A stretch of DNA of 64,000 nt. It comes from an uncultured Acidimicrobiia bacterium. GTDB lineage: Bacteria > Acidobacteriota > Vicinamibacteria > Vicinamibacterales > SCN-69-37. A program made the translations under genes and the position numbers. The DNA is taken from the NCBI GenBank assembly GCA_966252305.1, contig CBINOO010000004.1:27066-91065 (forward strand), read 5' to 3'. A model generated the notes under the pieces. It saw only the letters and a program-made list of their open reading frames with translations, searched no databases and was not told the DNA's origin. Positions 10,967 through 26,364 of this stretch are shown here, one piece after another (positions within the stretch are counted from its first letter, which is position 1; each line of letters begins with the position of its first letter).

Positions 10967-12415
10967 TCAATCTCCGATGACGACCCGCAGGCGCGCGCCG
11001 GTGACGGGCGGCGTCCCGGGCGATGAGCCGTTCATGATCGCAAGCGCGTTGGCGCTGATGGCGCCACGGCCGAGGGAGGTCGCGAGTGACTCCCAGGTGT
11101 CGCCCGTTCGCGCGGTGTGAAAGTCGATGCGCGCAGGTTGAATGGCATCCGCTTCTGCCTGCGAGAGGCCTCGAAACGAACGAATCACCGCAGCAAACGT
11201 CGAGTCGGCTGACGAAAACGATGCGGCCGGAGCGATGCCTGCGATGCGATACACGCGCCCGGAGTGCCCGAAGAAGGCAGCCCGGACACCATACGTATTC
11301 TGCCCATCGTCGCCCGCGAAGACGCCGACCCACCCGTTGAGCCCGTTCACCGTGAGGGCATCGCCGGACTGCAGCGAAAAGCCCGCCTCTTCCATCGCCG
11401 CCCGTCCAGCCTGCGCCGGCGTTCGGCCTTGCGCGTCGACCAGGTCCAGCACCATGCCGATGCCCTGCCCGTCTGGCGGCACGGCGTTCACCGCCGTCGA
11501 GCCGTTCGAGATCGTCCAGGCCTGTGGGAAAGTGAGCGCGATGCGCATGATCGGATGCAGGAAATCGCGGCCGCGCACGATCCCCTGTTCGCGGCTGTCG
11601 CCAAACACGAGTCCGTCAAGCCTGCGCGTAAATTCGTCCTCATTGACCCGTGTGGATGAGTCCGTGCGCGCCTTCGCGGCAATCTCCTGCACGTGCTCGA
11701 TGCGATCGGCCGGCAGCGGATGCGTCGAGAGGAAATTCGGGACGCCTCGGCTCTGGCCGTCGGCTTCCGAGAGTCGGCCAAGTGTGCCGAGCATCCCCGC
11801 CATGCCGGAGGGATTCCAGCCGCCCTGCGCTGCGTATTGCACACCGAAGCTGTCGGCTTGCAGTTCGGCATCGCGGCCGTACTTCAGAAACAAGAGGCCC
11901 GTCGCAACACTCGCAAACTCGAGCGCCGTGCGTTGCTGAGGATTCGCGAACAAGCTTGCAATCCCCAGGGAGCCGCCGACCAGTGTCTGCCGCGAGTACG
12001 CTTCTGCGCCGTGCAGGGCGGTCACATGCGCGATTTCATGACCGAGGACGTTGGCCATCTCGGCCTCGTTCTGCAGAAACGGCAGGATGCCGCGCGTCAG
12101 GTAGATGTAGCCGCCTGGCAGCGCAAATGCGTTGATCGCCGAGGCGTCGACGACCGTGAATGTCCACGGCAGCGAGGGTCGATGTGACTGCTTCGCCATC
12201 GCCTGACCGACGCGATTGACATACGCCTGCCAGTCCTGGTCGGCATAGACACCCATTTCCTGGCGAATCTGCGCGTCGGATTGTTTGCCGAGCGCCACTT
12301 CTCGCTCTTCGGACAGGATGTTGAGTGTTCGCCCACCGGTCGCGGGATTGGTAACACACGCCGTGATCAACGCGATTGATGAAACTGCCGCACCCAGCCA
12401 GACACGCGCCGTCAT
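10967..12415 (-). CDS. M48 family metallopeptidase with C-terminal LysM-like domain, probable lipoprotein
   Basis: HEIAHV zinc motif is present. The N-terminus MTARVWLGAAVSSIALITAC is lipoprotein-like. The C-terminus (TGDTWESLA...ALAIMNG) is LysM-like. Start moved to the ATG at 12415. Confidence 0.8.
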   Translation of the reverse strand: MTARVWLGAAVSSIALITACVTNPATGGRTLNILSEEREVALGKQSDAQIRQEMGVYADQDWQAYVNRVGQAMAKQSHRPSLPWTFTVVDASAINAFALPGGYIYLTRGILPFLQNEAEMANVLGHEIAHVTALHGAEAYSRQTLVGGSLGIASLFANPQQRTALEFASVATGLLFLKYGRDAELQADSFGVQYAAQGGWNPSGMAGMLGTLGRLSEADGQSRGVPNFLSTHPLPADRIEHVQEIAAKARTDSSTRVNEDEFTRRLDGLVFGDSREQGIVRGRDFLHPIMRIALTFPQAWTISNGSTAVNAVPPDGQGIGMVLDLVDAQGRTPAQAGRAAMEEAGFSLQSGDALTVNGLNGWVGVFAGDDGQNTYGVRAAFFGHSGRVYRIAGIAPAASFSSADSTFAAVIRSFRGLSQAEADAIQPARIDFHTARTGDTWESLATSLGRGAISANALAIMNGSSPGTPPVTGARLRVVIGD

Positions 12416-12419
12416 CACG

Positions 12420-13526
12420 TCACCTCCGTCTATGAGCGAGGGCATCCTCCAGCGCCGAGAGCACGCGCCGGACGTTGGCTTCCGTGGCTCCCGTGCCCAT
12501 CAATCCGATCCGCCAGATCCGCCCGGCCAGGGGTCCAAGGCCGGCGCCGATCTCGATGTCGTGTTGTTGAAGCAGGTGCGTGCGTACGGCCTTTTCATCG
12601 ACGCCCTCAGGCACACACACCGCATTGAGGCTCACGAGCCGCTCACCAACGGGAGGCAGCAGCTGAAGGCCAAGCGCGGCAGCGCCCTCGACGAACATGT
12701 CGTGCACCCGCTGATGGCGCTGCCACCGGGCGTCCAGGCCCTCCTCGAGCACCTCGCGCAGCGCCACACGAAGCGCATACACGAGCGGCGACGAGATGGT
12801 GTGGTGATACTGACGCCGCACCCAGAAGTCTTCGAGCTTTGACGCGTCGAGCGCAAAACTCCGGACCGACGGGGCGAGCCTGCGGGCGCGTTCGGACATC
12901 GCGAACGGCGACAGTCCTGGCGGCGCGCCAAGGCCTTTCTGGCCGCAGGAGTAGACCACGTCGGCGTCCCACGATCGCATGTCGACGGGCACGGCGCCCA
13001 GGGTCGTCACGGCGTCGACGACGAGCAGCGCCTCGCGAGCCCGCACCAGGGGCGCGATCTCTGCGATGGGATTCACGACGCCCGTGGATGTTTCGCCATG
13101 GACGATGCCGACCACGTCGAATCGGCCGTCGACGAGTGCGCGTTCGACAGCCGCGGGATCCACGGCGCGGCCCCACTCGACGTCGAGCCGCTCCACATGG
13201 GCGCCGTGACGCTGAAAGATCTGGGCCAGGCGATCACCGAAGTAGCCGCCGACCACGACCAGCGCGGACATGCCGGACTCGAGCAGGTTGCCGGCCGCCG
13301 CGTCCATCGCCGTGGTGCCGGTGCCGGAGACGGCGGTGGCAAACGCATGATCGGACGTCAGCATCACGTCCTGGAGATCCATGCGGATGTCATCGAGCAG
13401 CGCAACCAGTTCGGGGTCCAGATGTGATCGCGGCGGTGCCGCCAATGCCTCGCGCACAGCGGTCGACACCGGCGAGGGGCCGGGGCCCAGCAACAATCGC
13501 TCGGAGGTGGGCAGCGCGGACCTCAT
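12420..13526 (-). CDS. class V aminotransferase (alanine-glyoxylate / serine-pyruvate aminotransferase-like)
   Basis: Starts MRSALPTSERLLLGPGPSPV, followed by ...SCGQKGLGAPPGLSP (PLP-Lys region). Its ATG overlaps the upstream stop (ATGA at 13523-13526). Confidence 0.8.
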   Translation of the reverse strand: MRSALPTSERLLLGPGPSPVSTAVREALAAPPRSHLDPELVALLDDIRMDLQDVMLTSDHAFATAVSGTGTTAMDAAAGNLLESGMSALVVVGGYFGDRLAQIFQRHGAHVERLDVEWGRAVDPAAVERALVDGRFDVVGIVHGETSTGVVNPIAEIAPLVRAREALLVVDAVTTLGAVPVDMRSWDADVVYSCGQKGLGAPPGLSPFAMSERARRLAPSVRSFALDASKLEDFWVRRQYHHTISSPLVYALRVALREVLEEGLDARWQRHQRVHDMFVEGAAALGLQLLPPVGERLVSLNAVCVPEGVDEKAVRTHLLQQHDIEIGAGLGPLAGRIWRIGLMGTGATEANVRRVLSALEDALAHRRR

Positions 13527-14401
13527 CGCCACTCCTCGAGGGCTGCGCGGATCTCGTCGGCTGCAGCGGTCGATGCCGGTAGCAGTGGTGGCCGCACCGG
13601 GCCACCGGGGTAGCCCAGCAGGTCGAGCGCGCACTTGAGGCCCGCCACGCTGTGCACGCTCGACACGAGTTGCGCGATACGCAGCACGCGCTGCTGCAGC
13701 GCTCGGGCCTCGTCGTGCCGGCCCGCACAGAAGTGGTTCCACAAGGTCACGCATACATCCGGCAGGATGTTCGCTACTGCAATGATCGCGCCGGATGCTC
13801 CCATGACCCAGGCGGGGTACGCCACGGGCGCCCACCCCGACAACACGACAAACCGGTCCGGCGCCACTGCCGCAAACTGCGCGTGACGTTCCAGATCGTT
13901 GCTTGTTTCTTTCATGCCGATCACGTTGGGATGGTCGGCCAGCGTGCGCACGAGCGGAAGCGTGAAACTGAATCCGGCCATTCCGGGCACGTTGTACAGC
14001 AGCACGGGCACGGGCGAGGCATCCGCCACTGCACGGTAGTGCGCCTCAAGGGCCGCAGGCGTCATCTGCGTCTTGAAGAAGGACGGCGCCCGCACGAGCA
14101 CGGCATCGGCGCCGAGGTCGGCCGCGCGGCGGCACGCGGCGATGGTCGCGCGGGTGGATTCCCTGCCGGTGCCGACCAGCAACACGCGATCACGGGACAC
14201 CTCGCTGCGAGCAGTGTCGACAATGGCGTCGGCTTCCGATTCGTCAAGCAGCCCGGCTTCGCCGTTGGAACCGAGGACCAGGGCGCCGGCGAGCGACGAC
14301 CGTGCCAGGCGCTGCAGCTGGGCGCGCAGCGCCGCACGATCGACTTCACCGTCAGTGCCGAATGGAGTGGGAACAGGTGGAAAGATGCCGCGAATATCCA
14401 C
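13523..14401 (-). CDS. DapA/DHDPS-family aldolase (dihydrodipicolinate synthase or 4-hydroxy-2-oxoglutarate aldolase-like)
   Basis: IFPPVPTPF...GALVLGSNGEAGLL...IGMKETS are typical class I aldolase DHDPS-family motifs. Confidence 0.8.
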   Translation of the reverse strand: MDIRGIFPPVPTPFGTDGEVDRAALRAQLQRLARSSLAGALVLGSNGEAGLLDESEADAIVDTARSEVSRDRVLLVGTGRESTRATIAACRRAADLGADAVLVRAPSFFKTQMTPAALEAHYRAVADASPVPVLLYNVPGMAGFSFTLPLVRTLADHPNVIGMKETSNDLERHAQFAAVAPDRFVVLSGWAPVAYPAWVMGASGAIIAVANILPDVCVTLWNHFCAGRHDEARALQQRVLRIAQLVSSVHSVAGLKCALDLLGYPGGPVRPPLLPASTAAADEIRAALEEWR

Positions 14402-14413
14402 GCGGGCAAGGTA

Positions 14414-15367
14414 TCACGCTCGCCACGGACTGCGGGAGAGTCGTTGCACGAGGAACACCACGACAAACAGCGCCAGCGCCGGCGTGAGGAGCCACGGCGC
14501 CCGCTGCATCGCCGACAGGCTGGCGGCATCACGCAGCATCGCCCCCCAGCTGGGGGTCGGCTCGAGGAAGCCAAGGCCGAGGTACGAGATCGTCGATTCG
14601 GCAACCAGAAACGCCGGAATGAGCAGGACCAGCTCGGCGCGAAGGAACCCGAACGACGCGGGCATCACGTGCCGCAACAGTCGCCACGGCCCGGCCCCGG
14701 TGGCCCGCGCTGCCTCCACGTATTCCCGCTCGCGCTCCACCATCGTCACCGCGCGCACGCCCCGCGCGACGTGGGGCCAGCCGGCGATGGCAAACAGCAG
14801 AGACAGCACGCCGAAGACGGCCGGCGCATCCAGCGTCACGGGCAATGTCGCGCGCAACAGGAAGACGAGATAAACCCCGGGCAACACAATCAGCAGATCG
14901 GCGATGCCGCTGATGACGACATCGGCCCATCCACGCCACATGCCGGCCGCCGTGCCGATCCAGAGTCCCAGCCATAACGCCGCCAACGCGCCGGCCAGGG
15001 CGACACCGAGTGACAACCGCGCGCCGTGCAGCAGGCGGGACCAGACGTCCCGCCCGAGCGCGTCAGCGCCCAGCAGCAGCAGTGGCGCGTCAGGCTCAGC
15101 GACCGATACGAGCCGACCTGCGGTGAACCAGCGCAGTGGAATCCGGCGGGACGTCTCCTCATCGAAATCGCGCGTCACAGGATCGCGAAGGACCTGGCGG
15201 TACACGAACGGTGCGTGCCAGCCCTCGGCATCCCGAACATGCACGCGCATCGGGGGCGCCCACGCACGGTCGCTGAATTGTTGCCAGGGCGCGTGGGGCG
15301 CAATCCAGCCGGCGGCCAGTGTCAACAGCGTGATGACAAACATGGCCCCGGCTGCCGCGCGTGTCAT
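14414..15367 (-). CDS. ABC transporter permease (peptide/nickel type, DppC/OppC-like)
   Basis: Polytopic protein with an EAA-like loop (REYVEAARATGAGPWRLLRHV). Start moved to the ATG at 15367, which overlaps the upstream stop (ATGA). Confidence 0.85.
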   Translation of the reverse strand: MTRAAAGAMFVITLLTLAAGWIAPHAPWQQFSDRAWAPPMRVHVRDAEGWHAPFVYRQVLRDPVTRDFDEETSRRIPLRWFTAGRLVSVAEPDAPLLLLGADALGRDVWSRLLHGARLSLGVALAGALAALWLGLWIGTAAGMWRGWADVVISGIADLLIVLPGVYLVFLLRATLPVTLDAPAVFGVLSLLFAIAGWPHVARGVRAVTMVEREREYVEAARATGAGPWRLLRHVMPASFGFLRAELVLLIPAFLVAESTISYLGLGFLEPTPSWGAMLRDAASLSAMQRAPWLLTPALALFVVVFLVQRLSRSPWRA

Positions 15368-16287
15368 GACACGCGCTCCGTGACGCGCGGATCGACAACG
15401 GCAGCGAGCAGGTCGGCGGCCACGTTGCCCACGGCCAGGCACACCGCGCCGGCCCAGACACAACCGGCAATGAGGGTGACGTCTCCCGAGTGCACGCCGT
15501 CGAGCAACAGGCGTCCGAGCCCCGGCCACGACGCGATCATTTCAACCGCCAGCGACCCGCTGAACAACGTGGCGATGACGATCCCGAGCACACCCAGGAC
15601 CGGACGCAACGCCTGCCGCGCGGCGTGGCGCCAGACCAGCCGCGTGAGCGGAATGCCGCGCGCCGCTGCCGCACGTACGCCTCCCGCCTCCATCGCTTCG
15701 CGCGTGGCCTGCGACTGCAGGCGTTCGAGCATGGCTGCGACCGGGAGCCCAAGTGCGAGTGCCGGCAGGGCGAGAGCGCCTTGTGCGGTTGACGGAATCC
15801 CCGTGAGGACGCCGAGATACAGCAGACCAAGCGCGCCAATCAGTGGCGGGCACGCGACCAGCAGCAATGAAAGCGCCGTGATGACCTGCGCGAGCAGCCG
15901 CCCCTGGTTGGCGCCGGTGAAGATCCCTGCCGGGATGCCAAGGACGATTGCCAGCAACAGGGAGACCGCCGCGAGCCAGGCGGTGTTGGCTCCGCGTTCG
16001 ATGACGAGATCCCGCACAGGGCGGCGATACAACGACGATTCACCGAAGTTCAGTGTGACGACACCCGCGACCCAGCGAGCGGTCTGCAGGATCAGCGGAT
16101 CATCGAGGCCGAGCTCCGCGCGGCGCGCAGCAATGACATCGTCGGAGACGCCCGCAAGGCGGTCTGCGGTCGTTTCATCGCCCGGCGCGAGTCGTGCCAG
16201 TGTGAACGCACACGTGGACACGAAGAGGACGAAGACCACGCCGACTGCCGCGCGGCGCGCGACAAAGCGGAGCCACGTCGGCGTCAC
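15364..16287 (-). CDS. ABC transporter permease (DppB/OppB-like)
   Basis: N-terminus is RFVARRAAVGVVFVLFVSTCAFTL. Contains TREAMEAGGVRAAAARGIP. Its start overlaps the SBP gene end. Confidence 0.85.
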   Translation of the reverse strand: MTPTWLRFVARRAAVGVVFVLFVSTCAFTLARLAPGDETTADRLAGVSDDVIAARRAELGLDDPLILQTARWVAGVVTLNFGESSLYRRPVRDLVIERGANTAWLAAVSLLLAIVLGIPAGIFTGANQGRLLAQVITALSLLLVACPPLIGALGLLYLGVLTGIPSTAQGALALPALALGLPVAAMLERLQSQATREAMEAGGVRAAAARGIPLTRLVWRHAARQALRPVLGVLGIVIATLFSGSLAVEMIASWPGLGRLLLDGVHSGDVTLIAGCVWAGAVCLAVGNVAADLLAAVVDPRVTERVS

Positions 16288-17987
16288 TGCCCGCCGTTCG
16301 ACACCGAGAGGCGATCGGCGTTCCAGAGAATTGGCGGAAAGAAGATCTGCGGCACGGCGCCGCGGACACGGCCGCTCACGGGAATGATCACGCGAGGTGC
16401 CACGAGCCAGATCGCCGGAAGATTGTCCGCGAGCAGTCGCTGAATCTCGGCAAACACGCGCACGCGGGTCGGGCCGTCGACGGTCGTGGCCTGCTCACGG
16501 AACAGCTGGTCGATCCGGGCCTCCCACGCAGTCGAGGGCGAGGGTTGTCCCGGGTACCAGTAGTGAAACCCTCCCTGGCTCATCCAGAACGAGGCGTTTG
16601 GCTGCAGGGATGGCGCGCGACCGCCGAAGTACATCGCTTCGTAGGTGTGATTCGACATCCGCGCCCCGAGTTCCTGGCCGGACAGGTTGACGATGTCGAG
16701 GTCGACGCCGACCTGTCGGAGATGCTCCTGCGCGATCGACAACGTACGCTCGCGATCGGGAGCGCCGGCGCGATTGAGCACGCTGAAGCGCACCGGGCGT
16801 CCGCGATCATCCTCGAGCCGGCCGTCACCGTTCCGATCGGTCAGGCCAATGGAGGCCAGGAGCGTCTTCGCTTTGCCCTGATCAAAGGGCGTGGTCGGCA
16901 GATCCGGCACGTACCAGGGACCGTGCCCGGGCGTGACCGGACCGTACGCCGGCAGTGCCTGGCCGAAGTAGACCGTGTCGGCGATCACCTGCCGATTGAT
17001 GGCGTGCGAGAGTGCCCGGCGAAACTCGGGCTTCTGGAGCCAGGGCTTCTCGGCGCGCGCCTGCGCCTGCGGACTCAGGTCAAACCACAACGTCGTGACA
17101 TCGATCGCCGGACCGGCGTCGGCCAGGTGGATGCGGCCATCCTTGGCGGCGGCCTGGAGTGAGGCGAGATCGTCAGGCGCGGCGGCATCCATGATCACGT
17201 CGGTCTCGCCCGCCAGCAGCCGTGCCATTTCGGCGTCGTACTCCGGAATGATGGAGAAGTCGATGGCGTCCAGATACGGCAGGGCGCGACCGTCGGCGTC
17301 CTTGAGGAAGTAGTGCGGATTGCGCTCGAACCGGAAGCGTTGCCCCGGCACGTACTCCTTCACGACAAACGGGCCGGCGCCCACGATCTCGGACGGCGGC
17401 GTGTTCATCGTCCACACCGTGGGCAGACGGTGTTCGGCGCGCGCGGTTTCGAGCTTGTGGCGCGGCAGGATGAACAGCGTGTCGAACATCGCCATCCCGG
17501 GACCGTACGGGGCCGGGAACACGATCGCTACGCGATGTTCGTCGAGGGCGCGGGCGGTCACGGGCTTGCCGTCGACCATGAAGTCCCCGGCCGAGGGCAG
17601 TCCTTCGGTGGCGGCCAGTGAGAACACGACGTCCGCCGAGGTGAGCGGCGTGCCGTCGGAGAACTTCGCGTCGGGATGGAGGTCGACCGTCCACGTCAGG
17701 CCGTCGGGCGAGCCGGCCCACGCCGTGGCGACGCGCGGCTCAAGTTCTCCTTTTGGGGATGTGCGCACCAGCGTCAACTGCGTCAGCAGGCTCAGCGTGT
17801 GATTGGGCGCGGTCGGGGGAACGACCATTCGGATGTAGTTGGTGGGTTCGGCGCGGTAACTTGCCTTGAGTGTGCCCCCCCCAACCTGTTGTGGGGTACC
17901 AGACGCCCCACCGCAGTGGGCGGCGGACAGGGCAAACAAAAGACAAAAGAGCGCGCTGACGGGCCGGAATGTGCGGTTTTTGAGCAT
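16284..17987 (-). CDS. ABC transporter substrate-binding protein, family 5 (peptide/nickel)
   Basis: 567 aa with a signal peptide. Length and motifs are typical of SBP_bac_5. It is the first gene of a minus-strand operon. Confidence 0.85.
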   Translation of the reverse strand: MLKNRTFRPVSALFCLLFALSAAHCGGASGTPQQVGGGTLKASYRAEPTNYIRMVVPPTAPNHTLSLLTQLTLVRTSPKGELEPRVATAWAGSPDGLTWTVDLHPDAKFSDGTPLTSADVVFSLAATEGLPSAGDFMVDGKPVTARALDEHRVAIVFPAPYGPGMAMFDTLFILPRHKLETARAEHRLPTVWTMNTPPSEIVGAGPFVVKEYVPGQRFRFERNPHYFLKDADGRALPYLDAIDFSIIPEYDAEMARLLAGETDVIMDAAAPDDLASLQAAAKDGRIHLADAGPAIDVTTLWFDLSPQAQARAEKPWLQKPEFRRALSHAINRQVIADTVYFGQALPAYGPVTPGHGPWYVPDLPTTPFDQGKAKTLLASIGLTDRNGDGRLEDDRGRPVRFSVLNRAGAPDRERTLSIAQEHLRQVGVDLDIVNLSGQELGARMSNHTYEAMYFGGRAPSLQPNASFWMSQGGFHYWYPGQPSPSTAWEARIDQLFREQATTVDGPTRVRVFAEIQRLLADNLPAIWLVAPRVIIPVSGRVRGAVPQIFFPPILWNADRLSVSNGGQ

Positions 17988-18221
17988 GACGAACCTCAGT
18001 GCGAGGGGGGCAGATTCTCCTGTGGCGTACCGTCCTGAACGGGCGTATTATGGTGCAGTTTCACGACTTACGGGTGACGACCGCTTCGCCACTGCTGAGT
18101 CGCGACGCGTGGATCGAATCGTGGCCGGACGGCAAGTGCAGTACTGTCAGCGTTTTACGGAATCTTCACCTGGCAGTTGTGTGACACGGTACCTGCGTAG
18201 GCGAACGTCAACGGGCTAATT

Positions 18222-20105
18222 ATGGACGCGAACATCACCTCTCCTCGTCGTGTGTATCGGACGCTGGTCGGCATCATCGGCCTGGCGCTGATCTTCGGAT
18301 TGCTGAGTCCCGCGACAGCATCGGCTGATTGGCGTCGGCGCATGTCGCCTGAGCTGGCGGCGAAGATAGCGGCTGCGAAGTCCGATCGGTATCGGTCCAG
18401 CTGGAAGGCACGTTCGTCGCGCGCGGAGCAGCAGCTGTTCCAGATCGTGCTGACGGCGCCGCAGTCAGTGGTCGATCACCTGGGCCGCAAGTACGGCGTG
18501 CGTTTGATGAAGCGGATGATCATCGGCGGCCTGTTTGAGGGCACGGCCGACCAGGTCGACGCGCTCTCGAACGACCCTCAGGTGTCGGGCATCATCGAAA
18601 ACGTCCGTGTGTTCTCGATGATGGCGGTGACCTCGCAGGCCACCGGCGCCAACCAGGTATGGCAGGGCGCCAACGGGTCGTCGTACGGCGGGACGACGGG
18701 TCTGGGTGTTGGTGTGGCGGTCATTGACTCCGGTATCGCGGATCACGGCGACCTCCGGAATCGCGTCAGCGCTCGGCTCGACTTCACCGGTGACAATCTG
18801 CGCTGGGGCGGCAACGACGATTACGGCCACGGCACACATGTGGCGGGCATCATTGCCGGCAGCGGCGAAGGCAGCCGGGGCTGGTCTCGCCATTCGTCCT
18901 CCACCGCCGCGTATACGGGCATGGCGCCCGGCGCGACGCTGGTGAGCGCGAAGGTGCTGGGCGCGGATGGTTCCGGCTACGTGGCGGATGTCATCGAGGC
19001 GATTGACCATTTCATCCGGTACCGCGAGTTCTACGACGTTCGCATTCTCAACCTGTCGCTGGGTCATCCCGCCGGGCAGCCGTATCGTGAAGATCCGCTG
19101 GCCGACGCCGTTCGTCGAGCCGTTGAATCCGGTCTGGTCGTTGTGGCGTCGGCCGGCAACCTTGGCCGCACCGAAGACCACAAGCCCGTGCTGGCGTCGA
19201 TCGTGTCGCCCGGGTATTCGCCGTATGCACTGACGGCGGGCGCGCTCAACACGAACGGCACGGTGTTCCGCAGCGACGACACACCGGCGACATTCAGCTC
19301 GGCCGGTCCGGTTGTGGATCCGGGCACGCCGGCGCCGCAGTCACCCTCGGAGCTGCCGGCCAACGCGTTGCTCAAGCCGGATCTTCTCGCGCCGGGCAAC
19401 AAGATCGTTTCGGCCATTCCGACGGGCTCCACCTTGTGGCGCAATCCTGAGCTTCGGGATCGTCGGGTGATTGGTTCGCGCGGCGGGTCGTATATGTGGC
19501 TCTCGGGCACGAGCATGGCGGCGGCCGCGACGAGTGGTGCGGCGGCACTGCTGCTTCAGGCGCGTCCGGACCTCACGCCGTTTGAAGTGAAGACGGCGCT
19601 GCAGTTGACGGCCCAGCACCTGCCCGGCGTGGGCCTTGTGAAGCAGGGCGCCGGCAGCCTGAACGTCGCGCTGGCTGTGCGCTTCGCCAAGAACCGCAAC
19701 ATTCAGCAGCTCGACCTGACCAACACCATCGGCGGTGAACAGGCCTGGGCCAGCGGCATCTCCTTCGGCCAGGCATCGACCTGGGGCCAGACTCTGATCT
19801 GGGACAACACTCTGATCTGGGATAACAACAACGGTGGACTCCCCGGTCAGACGACGCCGTGGGCAGATACGCTGATTTGGGACAACACTCTGATCTGGGA
19901 CAACACCCTGATTTGGGATAACACCCTGATTTGGGACAACACCCTCATTTGGGACAACGCTCACATCTGGGGCGACACGCTCATCTGGGATAACACCCTG
20001 ATCTGGGATAACACCCTCATCTGGGACAACACTCACTTCTGGGGACAGACCCTGATCTGGGATAACACCCTCATCTGGGACAACACCTTGATCTGGGATA
20101 ACTAG
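18222..20105 (+). CDS. S8 (subtilisin-family) serine peptidase with C-terminal (TLIWDN)n repeat region
   Basis: Catalytic motifs VAVIDSGI, HGTHVAGII and SGTSMAAA are present. There is an N-terminal signal/anchor. The C-terminal approximately 105 aa are hexapeptide repeats. Confidence 0.9.
   Translation: MDANITSPRRVYRTLVGIIGLALIFGLLSPATASADWRRRMSPELAAKIAAAKSDRYRSSWKARSSRAEQQLFQIVLTAPQSVVDHLGRKYGVRLMKRMIIGGLFEGTADQVDALSNDPQVSGIIENVRVFSMMAVTSQATGANQVWQGANGSSYGGTTGLGVGVAVIDSGIADHGDLRNRVSARLDFTGDNLRWGGNDDYGHGTHVAGIIAGSGEGSRGWSRHSSSTAAYTGMAPGATLVSAKVLGADGSGYVADVIEAIDHFIRYREFYDVRILNLSLGHPAGQPYREDPLADAVRRAVESGLVVVASAGNLGRTEDHKPVLASIVSPGYSPYALTAGALNTNGTVFRSDDTPATFSSAGPVVDPGTPAPQSPSELPANALLKPDLLAPGNKIVSAIPTGSTLWRNPELRDRRVIGSRGGSYMWLSGTSMAAAATSGAAALLLQARPDLTPFEVKTALQLTAQHLPGVGLVKQGAGSLNVALAVRFAKNRNIQQLDLTNTIGGEQAWASGISFGQASTWGQTLIWDNTLIWDNNNGGLPGQTTPWADTLIWDNTLIWDNTLIWDNTLIWDNTLIWDNAHIWGDTLIWDNTLIWDNTLIWDNTHFWGQTLIWDNTLIWDNTLIWDN
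19791..20102 (+). repeat. 18-nt in-frame tandem repeat encoding TLIWDN (13 perfect units, 2 in-register variants, one 14-aa spacer)
   Basis: Read unit by unit from the sequence. Ten distinct synonymous 18-mers encode the 13 identical peptide units. Confidence 0.95.
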
Positions 20106-20254
20106 GCCAGCGCTACCGGCCAATATTGCTTGAAGTCGCGAATCACAACGTCGGAGTAACGAGATGCTGACTCAAGAGATCATCGTTTGGAGCTAACTTA
20201 GCTCTGGCGGGTGCGGCCCTTTCTGGCCGCCCCGCAACCCACAGGCCGAGCCCG

Positions 20255-22198
20255 ATGTCGCCCAAGCCGTCATCCCCAATGTCGTGGGCTGCCAAGTCCT
20301 ACCTCTTCACGGTTATTGGCGCTGGCTCGATAGCTTCCTTTCACGCGCTTTGGCATCTATTTCAGACACCTCCTGCACGTAGCGGCTGGTACTGGCTGAC
20401 AGGACTGACGCTGATCAGCGGTCTCCTGTCGGTCCGATTCCAGAAAGTCGGGGGCCGTTATTCGGTCTCCGAGACATTCACAATGTGGGGAACGCTCGTC
20501 TACGGCCAGGGCGTAGGCACGTTGCTGGTGCTCCTCGACGCAATGGTTCTGTCAGGCAACGTTTGGTTTCTCAAGCGGAAGTTCGACTGGAAAAGAACCC
20601 CGTTCAATCTGGCCGCCCCCGCACTTTCGATCTGGGTATCGTCTGGGGTGCTTTTCCTGATTGCTGGGCAGGCGCCCCTTCACCTGACTGCAGATCCCGT
20701 CAAGTTTGTTCTTGGACTGGGCGTCTTCACTGTTCTTTACTTCCTGATCAACTCCATGCTCGTTGCCGGGGCCATCGCACTGACCCTGCCAAGTCCCATG
20801 GGGCCTGCCAAGATGTTCACCACCACTTGGTGGGGCCTCAAGGAAGGCATCCTGACATACCTCGCCGGCGCCTCAATCGCCGCATTGCTAGCATCCGAAC
20901 AGGACGGCGACATCATCAGCAGAATTTTTGTGTTGATGCCCCTGATGGCCATGCTCTACCTGACCTATCGCAACGCTGCCAGGCAGGTCGATGAGATGCA
21001 GAGTCGCTTGGACGCGATTGAAAAAGTCCACATGTCGACAATCGCGGCCTTCGCAATGGCAATCGATGCAAAAGACCAGGTCACACACGGTCATATTCGG
21101 AGGGTTCAGCAGTACACGATGGAAGTCGCGCGAGCGCTGGGCGTTACCGACGACCGTCAGCTAAAAGCGATCGAGGCAGCAGCGCTGCTTCATGACACAG
21201 GGAAGCTGGCAGTCCCGGAGTACATCCTCAACAAGCCGGGTCCACTGACGCCTTCAGAGTTTGAAAAAATGAAGGAACATGCCGCGGTCGGCGCCAACAT
21301 CCTGAAGAGCATCGATTTTCCATATCCCGTGGCACCAATCGTTCGTCATCATCACGAAAACTGGGACGGCCGAGGCTATCCGGATGGGCTCAAAGGGCAG
21401 GAAATCCCGCTCGGCGCGCGCATCCTTTCGGTGGTGGACTGTTATGACGCGCTCACATCCGACCGTCCGTACCGACCTCGAATGACTCGGCAACAAGCCG
21501 AACAGATACTCCTGGACCGCCGCGGAAAGATGTACGACCCCTGGGTCGTTGACGGTTTCCTGAGAATTCTCGACCGCCTTGAGGCGATTGACGAGGCCGA
21601 GGGCCGGAATCAGCCCGCGCACAATAGGCCCGGCGCTGCAGCCGCCAGCCCAGCTCTTGATGTGATTAGCGCTGCGACGGCCGAAGAGCGCGAATTTGCC
21701 GAACTGCGCCGGGAGTTGCCGAAGGCTCAGACCCTAGACCAGGCCGCCGAGGTCTTCTTTCGGCATGTGCGCCGTGTGATTCCGGCAGCCGCAGTCGTGC
21801 TGTATCTGCCGGACAGTGTCACATCCGATTTGAGAGCAGCCTATTGTGCGGGTTCCGGAGCGAGCACGATCGAAGCCACTCGCATCCCGGTGGGGGAGCG
21901 CATCTCGGGCTGGGCCTTCGCCCATCGCCAAGTTGTCTTCAATTCAGAAGCATCTTTGGACTTGGGCCCTGTCGCCCGAACGCTGCCAGTGCCGCTCCGC
22001 TCAGCCTTGGTTGCTCCAATCGTCGACGGCGACCATGCGGTCGGGGTTGTTGCGCTGTACGGCAGCGAGGAATTTCATCGAGACCACCGAAGGATGCTCG
22101 AGTCTGCGTCTCAATTGCTCCAGACCACAGCTCCAGCCTTGCCTAGCGGACAGGCCACCGCGACTTCCGCAAGAGTCGAACAGCGTAAGGTTCATTAG
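20255..22198 (+). CDS. membrane-bound HD-GYP domain protein with C-terminal GAF-like domain (putative c-di-GMP phosphodiesterase)
   Basis: The N-terminal approximately 240 aa are polytopic hydrophobic. HD-GYP core is present: HGHIRRV...LLHDTGKLAVP...HHHENWDGRGYPDGL. The C-terminal approximately 170 aa are GAF-like. Confidence 0.85.
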   Translation: MSPKPSSPMSWAAKSYLFTVIGAGSIASFHALWHLFQTPPARSGWYWLTGLTLISGLLSVRFQKVGGRYSVSETFTMWGTLVYGQGVGTLLVLLDAMVLSGNVWFLKRKFDWKRTPFNLAAPALSIWVSSGVLFLIAGQAPLHLTADPVKFVLGLGVFTVLYFLINSMLVAGAIALTLPSPMGPAKMFTTTWWGLKEGILTYLAGASIAALLASEQDGDIISRIFVLMPLMAMLYLTYRNAARQVDEMQSRLDAIEKVHMSTIAAFAMAIDAKDQVTHGHIRRVQQYTMEVARALGVTDDRQLKAIEAAALLHDTGKLAVPEYILNKPGPLTPSEFEKMKEHAAVGANILKSIDFPYPVAPIVRHHHENWDGRGYPDGLKGQEIPLGARILSVVDCYDALTSDRPYRPRMTRQQAEQILLDRRGKMYDPWVVDGFLRILDRLEAIDEAEGRNQPAHNRPGAAAASPALDVISAATAEEREFAELRRELPKAQTLDQAAEVFFRHVRRVIPAAAVVLYLPDSVTSDLRAAYCAGSGASTIEATRIPVGERISGWAFAHRQVVFNSEASLDLGPVARTLPVPLRSALVAPIVDGDHAVGVVALYGSEEFHRDHRRMLESASQLLQTTAPALPSGQATATSARVEQRKVH

Positions 22199-22269
22199 GC
22201 TGTACAAGAAAACAGCCCCCCCTCCCAAAATCGTGGTGTGATCTGCTATCGTTCGCGCCGGCTGGTGCT

Positions 22270-24822
22270 ATGGAGCGACGGCAGGTGGATTCGGCTTCTT
22301 CAGAACAGACCATCAAACAGGAAACGGCCAAGGCTAAAGAGCTGTTCGACGGTGGCGATGCTACAGCGGCCCTTGAGATCCTGACGCGCCTGTCGGAGAG
22401 GTTCGGGCGATCGACGGGACCCGAACGGCTCGATGCAGAGTTCCTCCTTTTCTCTATCGAGGAACACTATCTTCCTCCCAGACAGAACGTCAGCAGCCTG
22501 GCGACACTGAGGCAACTGGCCACCACTCTCGGGGACGCTAGGTCTCTCGCGGCCCTCCACTTATCGGTAGCACGGCAGGAGGGCCTCCAAGGGGCGGTCG
22601 CATCGGCGCGCAGTCACCTCGCAATTGCAGAACGACTCACGACGGAACCGTTGGTACCCGCGCTTCTGTGCTCATGTCTCCTCGTTGGAGCGACCATCGA
22701 GATGTACGAGGGAAGTCTCCGGCAGGCTATCCGAGCCGCTCGGCTGGGCTTCGACCACGCCATTCAGAACAGGCTGCAACGTCACAGGGCCGGTTCTTTG
22801 GGAAACCTCGGCACACTAAGCTTGTGCCTTGGAGACTCTGATAATGCACGGCGGCTCCTCTCGGATGGCCTTGCACTCTGCGATCAACTGTCTTTTGTGC
22901 GACTGGCGTTAACCGACTCCCTGGCGGCCGTAGCCATCTACGACACCAACCTCACCGAGGCCTCCCGCCTGATCGAACAGTGTCGCCAGACGATCGAGTC
23001 GCAACGGGTTCCGTCTCGCTCCTGGTACGACCTGACACACCAGATAACGCGGTGCCTGTTTCATTCCCTCCGCGAGGAGTGGTCAGACATCGTCGCCATC
23101 GTCGACGAAGCCGACCCGGAGCTGGAGCGGCGCCAGCTCCGCACCTGGCGAGCCACGCTGCTGTCCGCGCGCGCAAAAGCCCTCGCGCGACTCGGCCAAC
23201 ATGACGAGGCGCACAGCTCCCTTGTCGCGGCGATGAACACCTGCCCCAAAGGCGCCGTCGACCCGATGATCAACATCGAAGTCGCGACGGCCGTCTGTCT
23301 CGCCCATCGTGGAGACGTGATCCAGGCGCAGCGCCATTTCGACCGCGCAGCCAGTGCGTGTGACGCCATCGAACACCGATTCCTCGGCTGGATGGCCGAG
23401 CGAGAACGGGCCGCCAGCCCCGTCGCCACCGTCCGCCCCTCACACGCCGCCGAACGCCGCCGACAATCCGATACCGACGACAGTGCCCTGCTCCTCAGTG
23501 ACGCCGCCGCCATACTCACCGCCGGTCAGTCACTCGATCTGATGGCCGAACGCGTGCGCTCGATCCTCCACGCGACGCCCCTCCGATCGAGGGTCCAGAT
23601 CACGAAACGCGCGGAAGGCCACGATGAGAACAGCAGCGGCCTGTCGGCCTCATGGGAGTTCCGCGGTAGCCAGGGCTGTCGCATCGACCTCTCCAACATG
23701 GACCGCACGATCACCATCGATGTGCGCGACCTGGCCTCCCTCGAAGAAGTCGCCATCGTCAAGAGCATTACCGACCTGCTCGCGGCCTCCGTGAACCAGG
23801 ATGCCGACGCAGACGAACGCCTCTGGCCGATGACGATGCCCACCAGCCCGGACGACACGGTGTTCTGGTCGCCGAGGATGCAGGAACTGCTCCGGATCAC
23901 CGAACGGCTGGCCACCACCGACCTGCCAATCCTCATCACCGGCGAAACCGGCACCGGCAAAGAGGTATTCGCGCGGCTCATTCATGACAACAGCAAGGTG
24001 AAACGCGGCCCCTTCGTCCCGTTCAACGCCTCCGCCATTCCGCGGGACCTCGTGGAAAGCCAGCTGTTCGGGCACCGGAGAGGTGCGTTCACCGGCGCGC
24101 ACGAGTCATCGTCCGGCGTGATTCGGAGCGCGGATCACGGCACGTTGTTCCTGGACGAAATCGGTGACCTCGAACTGGCGCTCCAGCCGAAGCTGTTGCG
24201 ATTTCTGGAATGCGGAGAAATCCACCCCGTCGGCGACCCCAAGCCGATGCGCGTCTCCGTTCGCGTCGTCGCTGCGACGAACGCCCGACTCGAAACCCTG
24301 GTCGAACAAGGGCGCTTCAGAAGCGACCTGCTGTATCGCCTGCGAGTCGCCGCGCTGGAGCTGCCGCCGCTCAGGGAACGCAAGGATGAAATCCCGGCCC
24401 TCACCGCCTTCTTCGTCCGGCGAGCGATGGCGGAATGTGGCCGTCAACACATCACCGTCGGAGACGATGTGGTGGCAGCATTTCTTCTGTACGACTGGCC
24501 GGGCAACCTCAGGCAGCTCTACAACGAAGTGCGGCGGATGGTGGCCATGGCCGATGACGAAGCGATGTTGCACAGCGATGACCTGTCGCATGACATCGCG
24601 GGGCCATGGCGCGCCGCCCACCCGCGTCGCGAGGCTCCGTCAGGCCCGCACGTGACGGTGCGCCTGGATCAGCCGCTGGAACTTGCTGTTGATGAAGTGG
24701 AGCGCGCGTTCATCGAACGCGCACTCCATCAGACACGCGGGAAGGTCACCGACGCCGCACAACTGCTCGGGATCTCGCGCAAAGGCCTCTTCGTCAAGCG
24801 GAAGCGGCTGGGTTTGGACTAA
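22270..24822 (+). CDS. sigma-54-dependent transcriptional activator (bEBP) with long non-canonical N-terminal helical-repeat domain
   Basis: AAA+ sigma-54 interaction domain is present: ITGETGTGKEVFARLIH, GAFTGA, LFLDEIGDL and RSDLLYRL. C-terminal Fis-type HTH (AAQLLGISRKGLFVKRKRLG). The N-terminal approximately 540 aa are Leu/Ala-rich and TPR-like, with no REC/PAS motifs recognised. Confidence 0.85.
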   Translation: MERRQVDSASSEQTIKQETAKAKELFDGGDATAALEILTRLSERFGRSTGPERLDAEFLLFSIEEHYLPPRQNVSSLATLRQLATTLGDARSLAALHLSVARQEGLQGAVASARSHLAIAERLTTEPLVPALLCSCLLVGATIEMYEGSLRQAIRAARLGFDHAIQNRLQRHRAGSLGNLGTLSLCLGDSDNARRLLSDGLALCDQLSFVRLALTDSLAAVAIYDTNLTEASRLIEQCRQTIESQRVPSRSWYDLTHQITRCLFHSLREEWSDIVAIVDEADPELERRQLRTWRATLLSARAKALARLGQHDEAHSSLVAAMNTCPKGAVDPMINIEVATAVCLAHRGDVIQAQRHFDRAASACDAIEHRFLGWMAERERAASPVATVRPSHAAERRRQSDTDDSALLLSDAAAILTAGQSLDLMAERVRSILHATPLRSRVQITKRAEGHDENSSGLSASWEFRGSQGCRIDLSNMDRTITIDVRDLASLEEVAIVKSITDLLAASVNQDADADERLWPMTMPTSPDDTVFWSPRMQELLRITERLATTDLPILITGETGTGKEVFARLIHDNSKVKRGPFVPFNASAIPRDLVESQLFGHRRGAFTGAHESSSGVIRSADHGTLFLDEIGDLELALQPKLLRFLECGEIHPVGDPKPMRVSVRVVAATNARLETLVEQGRFRSDLLYRLRVAALELPPLRERKDEIPALTAFFVRRAMAECGRQHITVGDDVVAAFLLYDWPGNLRQLYNEVRRMVAMADDEAMLHSDDLSHDIAGPWRAAHPRREAPSGPHVTVRLDQPLELAVDEVERAFIERALHQTRGKVTDAAQLLGISRKGLFVKRKRLGLD

Positions 24823-24873
24823 ACGGCGGGGCGGACCACCATCGCCAAGGCTACGGTAGTCCGCCGAAGCTTC

Positions 24874-26364
24874 CTACTTCCCCTGCAGCTGCTTCGCGAC
24901 CTTCTCGACTTCGCCCCACACACGCAGCAGGTTGCCGCTCCACAACTTCGCGATCTGCTCCTCGGTGTAGCCGCGGCGCACGAGCTCAAGCGTCACGTTA
25001 AACGTCTCTGACGCGCTGTTCCAGCCGGTGACCCCACCGCCGCCGTCGAAGTCAGAGGAGATGCCAACGTGATCGATGCCGATGAGCTTGACCGCGTAGT
25101 CGATGTGATCCACGAAGTCGGAGACGGTCGCACGCTCGGGCACGGGATACTTCGCGTTGATCGCGGAGAGACGACGCTGGTATTCGGCGCGACGTTCTTC
25201 CGATAACGCGGCCAAGGCTGCCTGATTGCCGCCGCCTCGTCCGCCACCACCCCCGCGCCCGGCCGCCGCAGGCGCGGTGCCGGCGGGGTCATCCGATTCC
25301 AGCGGGCACGCCACGGCCTGGCCCGCCGCCGGAGCGCCCGCACCGGCCCCCTGACGACCACCACCTGCGGCACGACCTCCACCAGCCGCCGCCGCGCCTC
25401 CACGGGCGCCACCGCCCTGCCGGCCGCCGCCCGGAGCCGCCGCCACACCAAACTCCTGCTGCAGCGCCTGCACCGCATCCTGCCGCGCCTGCGCGTTGTC
25501 ATCCACCTTCACATAGCTGGCAAACGCGACCGTCTGCATGACGCCGCCGTTTTTCTTGAGCGCCAGCAGCGTCTCGTCATCGAGGTTGCGGCTGTGATTC
25601 GCGAGCGCGCGCACCGCCGAGTGCGAGGCAATCACCGGCGCCTTCGACAACGCAATGGCCTGCAGATTCGCCTGCTTGGAGGGATGCGAGATGTCGACCA
25701 TCATCCCCCACTTGTTCATCTCGGCGATCACCTGCTTGCCCAGCTCGCTCAGGCCACCGTGAATACCGCCGTTGGCCGCCTCAGTCGAGTTGGAATCGGC
25801 CAGCTGCGAGTTGCCATTGTGCGCCAGCGACATGTAACGCCCGCCGCGCTCATAGAACTCCTTCACGCGCTCGAGGTCGGTGCCAATCGGGTAGCCGTTC
25901 TCCACACCGATGATCGCGACCTTCTTGCCCGACTTCGCGATCCGCACGACGTCGGTCGGCGTCAGCGCGAGTTCGATCTCGTTGGGCGCGATCTCCTCCG
26001 TCAGCCGATGCACGGCCTCGAACTTCTCGACGGCCTGGCGATACGCGTTGTCGAAGCCTTCTTCGGTGAGTGGCCCCTGCCCGACATACACGATCAGGAA
26101 CGGCGCATCGAGTCCGCCTTCCTTCATCTTCGGCAGATTCACCTGCGTCGTCAGGCGCATGGTGTAGTTGCAGGTGGGCGTAAACCGCGCGGGGGAGATG
26201 TCCACGTGTGTGTCCATCGTGATCACGCGATCGTGAATACCGCGCGCGCGGGCGATCAACGCCTGGTCGGGCTGCTGCGCCTGGGCGGACAAGAAGGACG
26301 AGGACGCGGCAACGGTCACCGCGACCAGTGCGGCGGGAAGAAGTCGGGGTCGCATGGGCGCCAT
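24874..26364 (-). CDS. M19 membrane dipeptidase-family protein with an internal Gly/Ala/Arg-rich insertion
   Basis: Signal peptide is present. M19 motifs are VITMDTHVDI, YMSLAHNGNSQLADS, MMVDISHPS, VIASHSA and IGISSDFDGGGG. An approximately 75-aa low-complexity insert lies before the last conserved block. Confidence 0.8.
   Translation of the reverse strand: MAPMRPRLLPAALVAVTVAASSSFLSAQAQQPDQALIARARGIHDRVITMDTHVDISPARFTPTCNYTMRLTTQVNLPKMKEGGLDAPFLIVYVGQGPLTEEGFDNAYRQAVEKFEAVHRLTEEIAPNEIELALTPTDVVRIAKSGKKVAIIGVENGYPIGTDLERVKEFYERGGRYMSLAHNGNSQLADSNSTEAANGGIHGGLSELGKQVIAEMNKWGMMVDISHPSKQANLQAIALSKAPVIASHSAVRALANHSRNLDDETLLALKKNGGVMQTVAFASYVKVDDNAQARQDAVQALQQEFGVAAAPGGGRQGGGARGGAAAAGGGRAAGGGRQGAGAGAPAAGQAVACPLESDDPAGTAPAAAGRGGGGGRGGGNQAALAALSEERRAEYQRRLSAINAKYPVPERATVSDFVDHIDYAVKLIGIDHVGISSDFDGGGGVTGWNSASETFNVTLELVRRGYTEEQIAKLWSGNLLRVWGEVEKVAKQLQGK

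Follow-up and report, generated by a model that had tools for sequence, protein, structure and literature searches.

The window analysed here, a 64,000-nucleotide stretch of contig CBINOO010000004.1 (positions 27,066 to 91,065), carries a gene for a subtilisin-family (S8) peptidase whose C-terminus is built from tryptophan-containing hexapeptides, 13 of them exactly TLIWDN. As judged by sequence comparison, this repeat tail is a real, selected and conserved feature and probably represents a hexapeptide solenoid of the YdcK/left-handed beta-helix (LbH) type in a new setting. On balance, sequence and modelling lead us to favour, as the probable explanation, a non-catalytic C-terminal LbH/YdcK-type solenoid rod that serves attachment or self-association on an exported S8 protease.

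The tail starts at 19773, in frame with the open reading frame (ORF) 18222..20105, and runs ASTWGQ, two TLIWDN, NNGGLPGQTTPWAD, five TLIWDN, AHIWGD, three TLIWDN, THFWGQ, three TLIWDN and the stop codon, giving a total of 18 hexads (110 aa) with Trp in 17 of the 18. A first-pass annotation of this DNA had described an in-frame 18-nt array that ends on a unit boundary, with 13 TLIWDN units encoded by 10 distinct 18-mers whose differences are all silent, and we confirmed each of these points. Across the 13 units, Thr is encoded by ACC (8), ACT (3) or ACG (2), Leu by CTG (8), CTC (4) or TTG (1), Ile by ATC (9) or ATT (4) and Asp by GAC (7) or GAT (6), with TGG and AAC invariant. Tandem Repeats Finder reported a period of 18 nt (12.8 copies, score 257) and a 72-nt super-period (score 311). 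In the consensus unit, 20-27% of random single-base changes are synonymous; at least six changes are needed among the units and all are silent, which would arise by chance with a probability of about 0.27^6 = 4e-4. The proportion of synonymous differences (pS) among the 13 units was 0.59, i.e. near saturation, and that of non-synonymous differences (pN) about 0; pN/pS was 0.24 once the three variant units were added. The pattern is far beyond chance, and no other such arrays were found in the 64-kb window. Together with the orthologue and family data below, these values speak for purifying selection on the repeated peptide and support the earlier view that the array is selected and did not arise by fresh slippage. 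An antisense ORF of 260 aa (19341..20123, minus strand; VIPDQGVVPDEGVIPDQG...) mirrors the array, but such a stop-free antisense reading is not gene evidence.

Two loci (L001 and L002) are collinear with the window across about 13 kb, with nucleotide identities of 80% and 70-75%, and encode proteases 86% and 74% identical to the window protein, respectively. Both tails match that of the window exactly in how many canonical and variant hexads they have and in how these are arranged. Because two independent assemblies share unit count and order, mis-assembly, against which the first-pass annotation had advised a check, is very unlikely. That annotation had also noted a 14-aa interruption. It is present, but it consists of two divergent in-register hexads with a 2-residue bulge and ends in a Trp unit (TTPWAD) of its own, because L001 and the distant relatives have exactly two hexads in this place. 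The bulge is found in the window and L002, and the L001 tail is exactly 18 hexads long. The last eight hexads (19959..20102) form two 72-nt blocks that are 83% identical to each other, each consisting of a variant x-H-[IF]-W-G-x unit and three canonical units, which points to an old block duplication common to all three orthologues. L001 (BTVE01000005.1, 28280-42157) includes a sigma54 activator and comes from a metagenome-assembled genome labelled Acidimicrobiia; other named relatives belong to Vicinamibacterales, Acidobacteriota or Solibacteraceae, and the L001 label may reflect mis-binning.

Among these orthologues the canonical unit differs as a whole array. All 13 units read TLIWDN in the window, TMVWDN in L001 and TLVWDN in L002, and the canonical unit of the next relative (P0002) is TMIWDN. 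All four [L/M][I/V] combinations occur, so that each of the two positions needs at least two array-wide switches, making at least four switches of the unit within a small clade; mixed arrays were not seen (0 of 43 units observed). Inside each array the synonymous sites are heterogeneous, with 10 DNA versions per 13 units in the window and 4 and 9 in the orthologues. Gene conversion should homogenise synonymous sites beside the replaced bases, contrary to this heterogeneity, and independent substitution would require the same change to arise in parallel 13 times for every switch. Whether orthologous units share synonymous states was assessed with a permutation test, which is weak in itself and gave P = 0.016 for L001-L002, 0.43 and 0.76 for the pairs with the window and 0.15 combined; it is only suggestive and cannot separate gene conversion from parallel substitution. 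Array-wide switching with heterogeneous synonymous sites is thus left without an explanation by our analysis.

Related tails extend well beyond this clade. Searches with the full-length protein returned thousands of S8 relatives, the named ones mostly from Vicinamibacterales or Acidobacteriota. In a set of 121 retrieved proteins (120 S8 relatives and P0001), 89 have a C-terminus with three or more x-x-[ILV]-W-[GD]-x units, which bears out the earlier remark on W-G repeats at the ends of some bacterial proteases. The family core [DNT]-[TS]-[ILV]-[ILV]-W-[GD]-x is conserved, and the spacing from one Trp to the next peaks at 6, 8, 12 and 14 residues. The 87 loci with DNA contain 49 arrays, 33 of them with period 6, and the median pN/pS across the 49 was 0.29; all 16 arrays with at least five identical units exist in at least three DNA versions. 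Distant relatives are laid out as in the window, with a lead-in, one to three units, a Trp-less hexad, an x-P/A-A-W-A-x hexad and a long run, and their lead-in hexad reads [AS]-[SQ]-x-h-W-G. Therefore, the shared lead-in and the shared break (a Trp-less and then a PAWA-type hexad) mark the tail as a defined domain.

How many relatives appear depends on the search. Querying a word-indexed database of 5.8 billion proteins with the tail only, in which TLIWD words are rare, gave one relative, and a hexad-only profile (A4) retrieved only 19 short domain-less fragments from a large database. A metagenome scan by catalytic-motif patterns found no close orthologues (best 44%) and supplied the family-wide statistics. 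The impression of a tail without homologues was a method artefact, since full-length and exhaustive searches found relatives. No Pfam or NCBIfam model covers the Trp-core tails, which settles the earlier question of a curated family, and a literature search on the motif, Trp-rich subtilase repeats, Trp-ladder solenoids and YdcK found nothing relevant. The first-pass annotation had also asked which catalytic domains carry such tails; the partial answer is several S8 subfamilies, along with domain-less YdcK-like proteins. From these comparisons, the tails are a large uncurated family on S8 exoproteases of Acidobacteriota-like soil bacteria. Some tails with an 8-residue period (P0077, P0089) pass the Pfam gathering threshold for LbR_Ice_bind, the grass antifreeze beta-roll (41.8 bits versus 30), and tails with a 13-residue period (P0005, P0020) give sub-threshold Lysostaphin_N matches, which we judged compositional. 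Both kinds of match look like repeat-level analogy or composition, not homology.

The wider kinship of the hexad lies with the LbH proteins. Compared with PDB sequences, the tail matched 35 chains, all 35 of them LbH proteins aligned in hexad register (IWDNTL with IGDNTK; best match 4mzu, E = 6e-5). PF00132 hexads repeat every six residues, an aliphatic residue occupying i and a small one ([STAV]) i+4, and Ile and Thr fill these positions in all 13 canonical units. Only i+1 is atypical, where Trp replaces [GAED] in 16 in-register hexads and in TTPWAD (NNGGLPGQ is without Trp), and real LbH hexads with I-W-D occur, e.g. in 4mzu. The first-pass statement that the motif misfits the LbH hexapeptide pattern was therefore mistaken. 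In contrast, its judgement that pentapeptide and choline-binding repeats do not fit was sound: the period is six residues (18 nt) rather than the five of A(D/N)LXX, there was no Pfam pentapeptide match, and neither choline- or cell-wall-binding repeats (about 20 residues) nor W_rich_C were among the Pfam matches at E <= 1.

An exhaustive phmmer search of the tail against 1.84 billion representative proteins gave 1443 matches at E <= 1e-3, the best being proteins of 200-500 aa composed of N-A-x-[VI]-[YF]-[GD] hexads. When the 121 best matches were scanned, 107 had PF18836 YdcK repeats, 99 had Hexapep and only three were S8 peptidases. Alignment of the protease tails with the YdcK-type set by hhalign was in register (probability 98.9%, E = 1e-17), and Trp occupies the aromatic position in some YdcK-type proteins outside proteases (P0199, P0209, P0224). 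By these comparisons, TLIWDN reads as a YdcK-type LbH hexad with Trp replacing Tyr/Phe. The phmmer matches P0122-P0270 make up a large uncharacterised YdcK-type hexapeptide family, many of AT-rich, phage- or Firmicutes-like composition, with a common N-terminal module (KKYELT..LYRI.AL.DF..VK.GDLGG.IE.E.NLS..G.CWV).

The likeness to the YdcK repeat (PF18836; structure 2pig) is one of register and chemistry, [ND]-[AT]-x-[VI]-aromatic-[GD] corresponding to N-T-L-I-W-D. The tail differs in having a conserved aliphatic residue (Leu/Met) at the variable outward position, only Trp at the aromatic position and identical units; moreover, it is C-terminal on a secreted protease, whereas YdcK repeats follow the KKYELT...GDLGG N-terminal module. 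To our knowledge, YdcK has no known function. With the PF00132 LbH proteins (LpxA, LpxD, gamma-carbonic anhydrase and sugar N-acetyltransferases), the tail shares the period of 6, and its D-N turn matches I-G-D-N-V-x. Unlike these enzymes, whose hexads are degenerate, it has uniform units and no transferase or carbonic-anhydrase context, and its fold is a predicted one. The possibility that the motif belongs to an already characterised family thus held in part: the repeat class and fold are known, but the Trp version on proteases is not.

An AlphaFold2 model of the tail alone, built from a 17-sequence alignment, placed strands at an exact 6-residue interval, each TLIW forming a strand and each DN a turn, and the list of Foldseek candidates for this model consisted almost wholly of LbH proteins and other beta-solenoids. 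Of the possible folds, a beta-solenoid is therefore best supported, probably with LbH geometry in the pure-hexad tail of the window. The Trp-ladder solenoid suggested by the first-pass annotation accordingly holds up as the best structural reading, given the PDB matches, the predicted strands, the YdcK kinship and the hhalign result.

Several observations weigh against a YdcK/LbH-type solenoid. The confidence of the tail model (predicted local distance difference test, pLDDT) was 58 overall, with 67-78 over the last 70 residues, and none of its Foldseek matches was significant (E >= 1.7, template modelling score <= 0.38); a single-sequence AlphaFold2 model of the whole protein had a pLDDT of 34 and was discarded. 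On the window protein, Pfam Hexapep scored 23.5 bits, below the gathering threshold of 27, PF18836 gave no match at E <= 1 and NCBIfam YdcK_fam scored 11-14 bits, where the cut-off is 350. No PDB match was obtained with the mixed-period family profile (A1). E-values and probabilities from repeat-versus-repeat comparison, including those above, are inflated, and we put weight on the consistent register instead. With Trp and Leu exposed on every face, such a rod would have a very hydrophobic surface for a protein that is monomeric in solution. Finally, the 8- and 14-residue periods of relatives misfit an 18-residue LbH coil without loops; therefore, the family is not uniformly canonical LbH.

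Some of these points would suit a different fold with a role that is still non-catalytic, namely an antiparallel beta-meander, a Trp-zipper-like ribbon or a two-sided beta-roll, which we regard as unlikely but as the most serious competitor. The sequence W-[GD]-[NSDT] resembles classic two-residue hairpin turns, and the hexads can be read as hairpins whose strands are four residues long and whose turns are the residue pairs G-N or D-N. Trp-to-Trp distances of 8, 12 and 14 in relatives are easier to accommodate in two-sided or loop-variable architectures than in an 18-residue coil, and the relatives that pass the LbR_Ice_bind threshold match a beta-roll. The modelled strand pattern cannot tell a solenoid from a meander, nor can Foldseek matches that are not significant. 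What argues for the solenoid over these folds is that the in-register sequence matches are only to parallel LbH/YdcK solenoids and that the Foldseek candidates are nearly all parallel beta-solenoids.

If the tail is such a solenoid rod, an exported, active subtilisin-family protease would carry an 18-hexad non-catalytic domain of the form [ND]-[AT]-x-[IV]-aromatic-[GD], in which the aromatic is always Trp. Each hexad would contribute a four-residue strand (T-L-I-W) and a two-residue turn (D-N), with Ile and Thr directed into the core and Trp and Leu presumably exposed as outer ladders; at three hexads per coil, this would make about 6 coils and a rod of roughly 29 A. The aromatic ladders could hold the protease on a surface or polymer, such as the cell's own envelope, its extracellular polymeric substances (EPS) or an insoluble substrate, or could tie it to further copies of itself. 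The perfect regularity may allow the rod to resist autolysis by the broad-specificity protease attached to it, and holding the protease in place would let the released peptides reach the producer. We infer the binding or association function, as well as the exposed residues and the details of the fold; the binding of glycan, cell wall or EPS and the anchoring proposed in the first-pass annotation would be roles of this kind.

Designs of this type have counterparts elsewhere. The ice-nucleation and the insect and grass antifreeze beta-solenoids (PF21300, grass beta-roll) likewise have near-identical short repeats in which the peptide is kept more strictly than the DNA, and their repeats form flat periodic ladders that bind a periodic ligand. 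The ladders of the tail would be Trp and Leu rather than Thr/Ser, making ice or water an unlikely ligand, and PF21300 gave no match on the window protein, so the resemblance is one of design, not homology. The RTX beta-roll of serralysins and the PPC and P-domains of subtilases are, like the tail, C-terminal repeat or beta-rich domains on exported proteases, with roles in folding, secretion or attachment. However, no RTX, PPC or P-domain model of Pfam or NCBIfam matched the window protein, and the tail is built on a hexad with Trp, as opposed to a Gly/Asp calcium-binding nonapeptide; the window protein also has a predicted N-terminal signal peptide and not a type I secretion signal.

Another explanation, which we consider rather improbable, is that the tail is a C-terminal pro-region that aids export or folding, or confers latency, and is removed by autoprocessing to leave a tail-less mature protease. 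Some other subtilases, e.g. aqualysin, lose a C-terminal extension by cleavage once they have been secreted. Trp, Leu and Met, preferred P1 residues of subtilisins, abound in the tail, and tail length and period vary widely among relatives. However, the exact count of 18 hexads and the positions of the variant units in the orthologues, together with the extreme purifying selection, exceed what a disposable pro-peptide would need, and the tail has no sequence similarity to known pro-regions in Pfam or NCBIfam.

The genomic neighbourhood bears on a further possibility. The region 10967..26364 contains an oligopeptide-type importer, the S8 protease with its Trp tail, an HD-GYP protein (with or without GAF) and a sigma54 activator, with M19 and M48 peptidases nearby, and this gene order is kept down to about 40% protein identity (L003, L004, L005 and the P0116 contig). 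Importer genes also flank the relatives P0116 and P0049, and the HD-GYP neighbour also follows P0113, P0049 and P0017. By its gene content, the locus fits an exoprotease that feeds peptide uptake. Among the window neighbours, Pfam revealed no peptide-modifying enzymes; other neighbours encode metabolic enzymes. In some relatives a small HTH_17 gene lies directly upstream of the protease or is fused to it (P0091).

With such neighbours, the tail could instead be a hexapeptide polyprotein that the fused or another protease cuts after each Trp, freeing about 12 copies of DNTLIW as signals or importer cargo, although we regard this as very improbable. Identical units with varying codons and an array-wide change of unit between orthologues are the pattern of a multi-copy peptide precursor, the TMVWDN, TLVWDN and TMIWDN units would resemble pherotypes, an Opp-like importer and signalling proteins are conserved neighbours, and many tails stop two residues past a Trp. 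A signalling version, in which DNTLIW here and DNTMVW, DNTLVW or DNTMIW in relatives would be released by subtilase self-processing and taken up again by the Opp-like importer, strikes us as just as improbable. Against it stands the in-register alignment of the tail with LbH/YdcK repeats, which are structural. The variant units and the Trp-less and PAWA hexads also hold their positions in relatives that share only 35-40% identity, and Gly-rich linkers and periods of 8 to 14 occur among relatives. Furthermore, we found neither modifying enzymes among the neighbours nor spacers or recognition sites, the units abut directly and the importer is equally well explained by nutrition. Least of all do we credit a functionless, neutral low-complexity sequence produced by recent slippage expansion or assembly error: a tandem repeat with a stop-free antisense mirror ORF might suggest it, but synonymous near-saturation without amino-acid change, an identical architecture in two independent syntenic assemblies and family-wide conservation effectively refute it.

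The features of the gene, its product and its neighbours are collected in the table. Membership of the S8 family is supported by a PF00082 score above the gathering threshold and by intact Asp, His and Ser motifs (VIDSG, HGTHVAG and GTSMAA). The N-terminus is a putative signal peptide, in which we read, by eye from the translation, a basic n-region containing a conserved RR, a hydrophobic core of 15 residues and an A-S-A cleavage motif. The Arg-Arg pair ahead of the hydrophobic core lies in SPRRVYRTL in the window protein (orthologue consensus RRVxRxL). Whether export is by the general secretory (Sec) or the twin-arginine (Tat) route bears on the tail, as a Tat substrate would fold prior to export. 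Neither a sigma70-like promoter nor an intrinsic terminator was found around the protease gene, and the contig index lists no identical protein.

Table. Positions in the window of the protease gene, the parts of its product and the neighbouring genes.
Feature	Position	Strand	Basis or remark
Oligopeptide-type ATP-binding cassette (ABC) importer genes, divergent	14414..17987	-	Pfam; SBP_bac_5 binding protein (16284-17987) and two permeases
S8 (subtilisin-family) peptidase gene, 627 aa, with repeat tail	18222..20105	+	ORF list; Pfam Peptidase_S8, E = 6e-46
Predicted signal peptide, residues 1-35	18222..18326	+	Read from translation; kept in orthologue alignment
S8 catalytic domain, residues 162-469	18705..19628	+	Pfam PF00082, 157.4 bits versus gathering 21.8
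Connector from catalytic domain to array (GAGSLN...NTIGGE..ASGISFGQ)	19647..19772	+	Conserved in relatives' tails (alignments A1 and A3)
Lead-in degenerate hexad ASTWGQ (hexad 0)	19773..19790	+	ASTWGQ or ATTWGQ in orthologues
Canonical units 1-2, TLIWDN x 2	19791..19826	+	
Trp-less NNGGLPGQ, one hexad plus 2-residue bulge	19827..19850	+	KTIPGN in L001, GNTINI in L018, GTSVFV in L029
Variant Trp hexad TTPWAD	19851..19868	+	Counterparts VTLWGE, ITTWGE, NQAAWA, NQPAWA
Canonical units 3-7, TLIWDN x 5	19869..19958	+	
Variant hexad AHIWGD	19959..19976	+	Position kept in orthologues: SHFWGQ (L001), SLIWGR (L002)
Canonical units 8-10, TLIWDN x 3	19977..20030	+	
Variant hexad THFWGQ	20031..20048	+	Position kept in orthologues: SHFWGQ (L001), THFWGQ (L002)
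Canonical units 11-13, TLIWDN x 3	20049..20102	+	Stop codon 20103-20105
HD-GYP-type (HD_5) and GAF signalling protein, downstream	20255..22198	+	Pfam

Of the secreted, Acidobacteriota-like S8 proteases that came from soil and sediment metagenomes, a large proportion bear Trp-core tails, and array-wide switching at a fixed 18-hexad architecture offers a clean natural case for the upkeep of perfect repeat identity. Should the polyprotein explanation prove true, it would mean self-processing peptide communication in Acidobacteriota and would explain both the identical units and the lineage switching. If the tail is instead the Trp-ladder solenoid that we favour, it would be a new non-catalytic module and a very regular, probably protease-resistant scaffold, possibly setting where the protease acts (retained by the cell or EPS, bound to insoluble substrate, or as an oligomer), and it would bear on how abundant soil bacteria keep the products of their own extracellular proteolysis.

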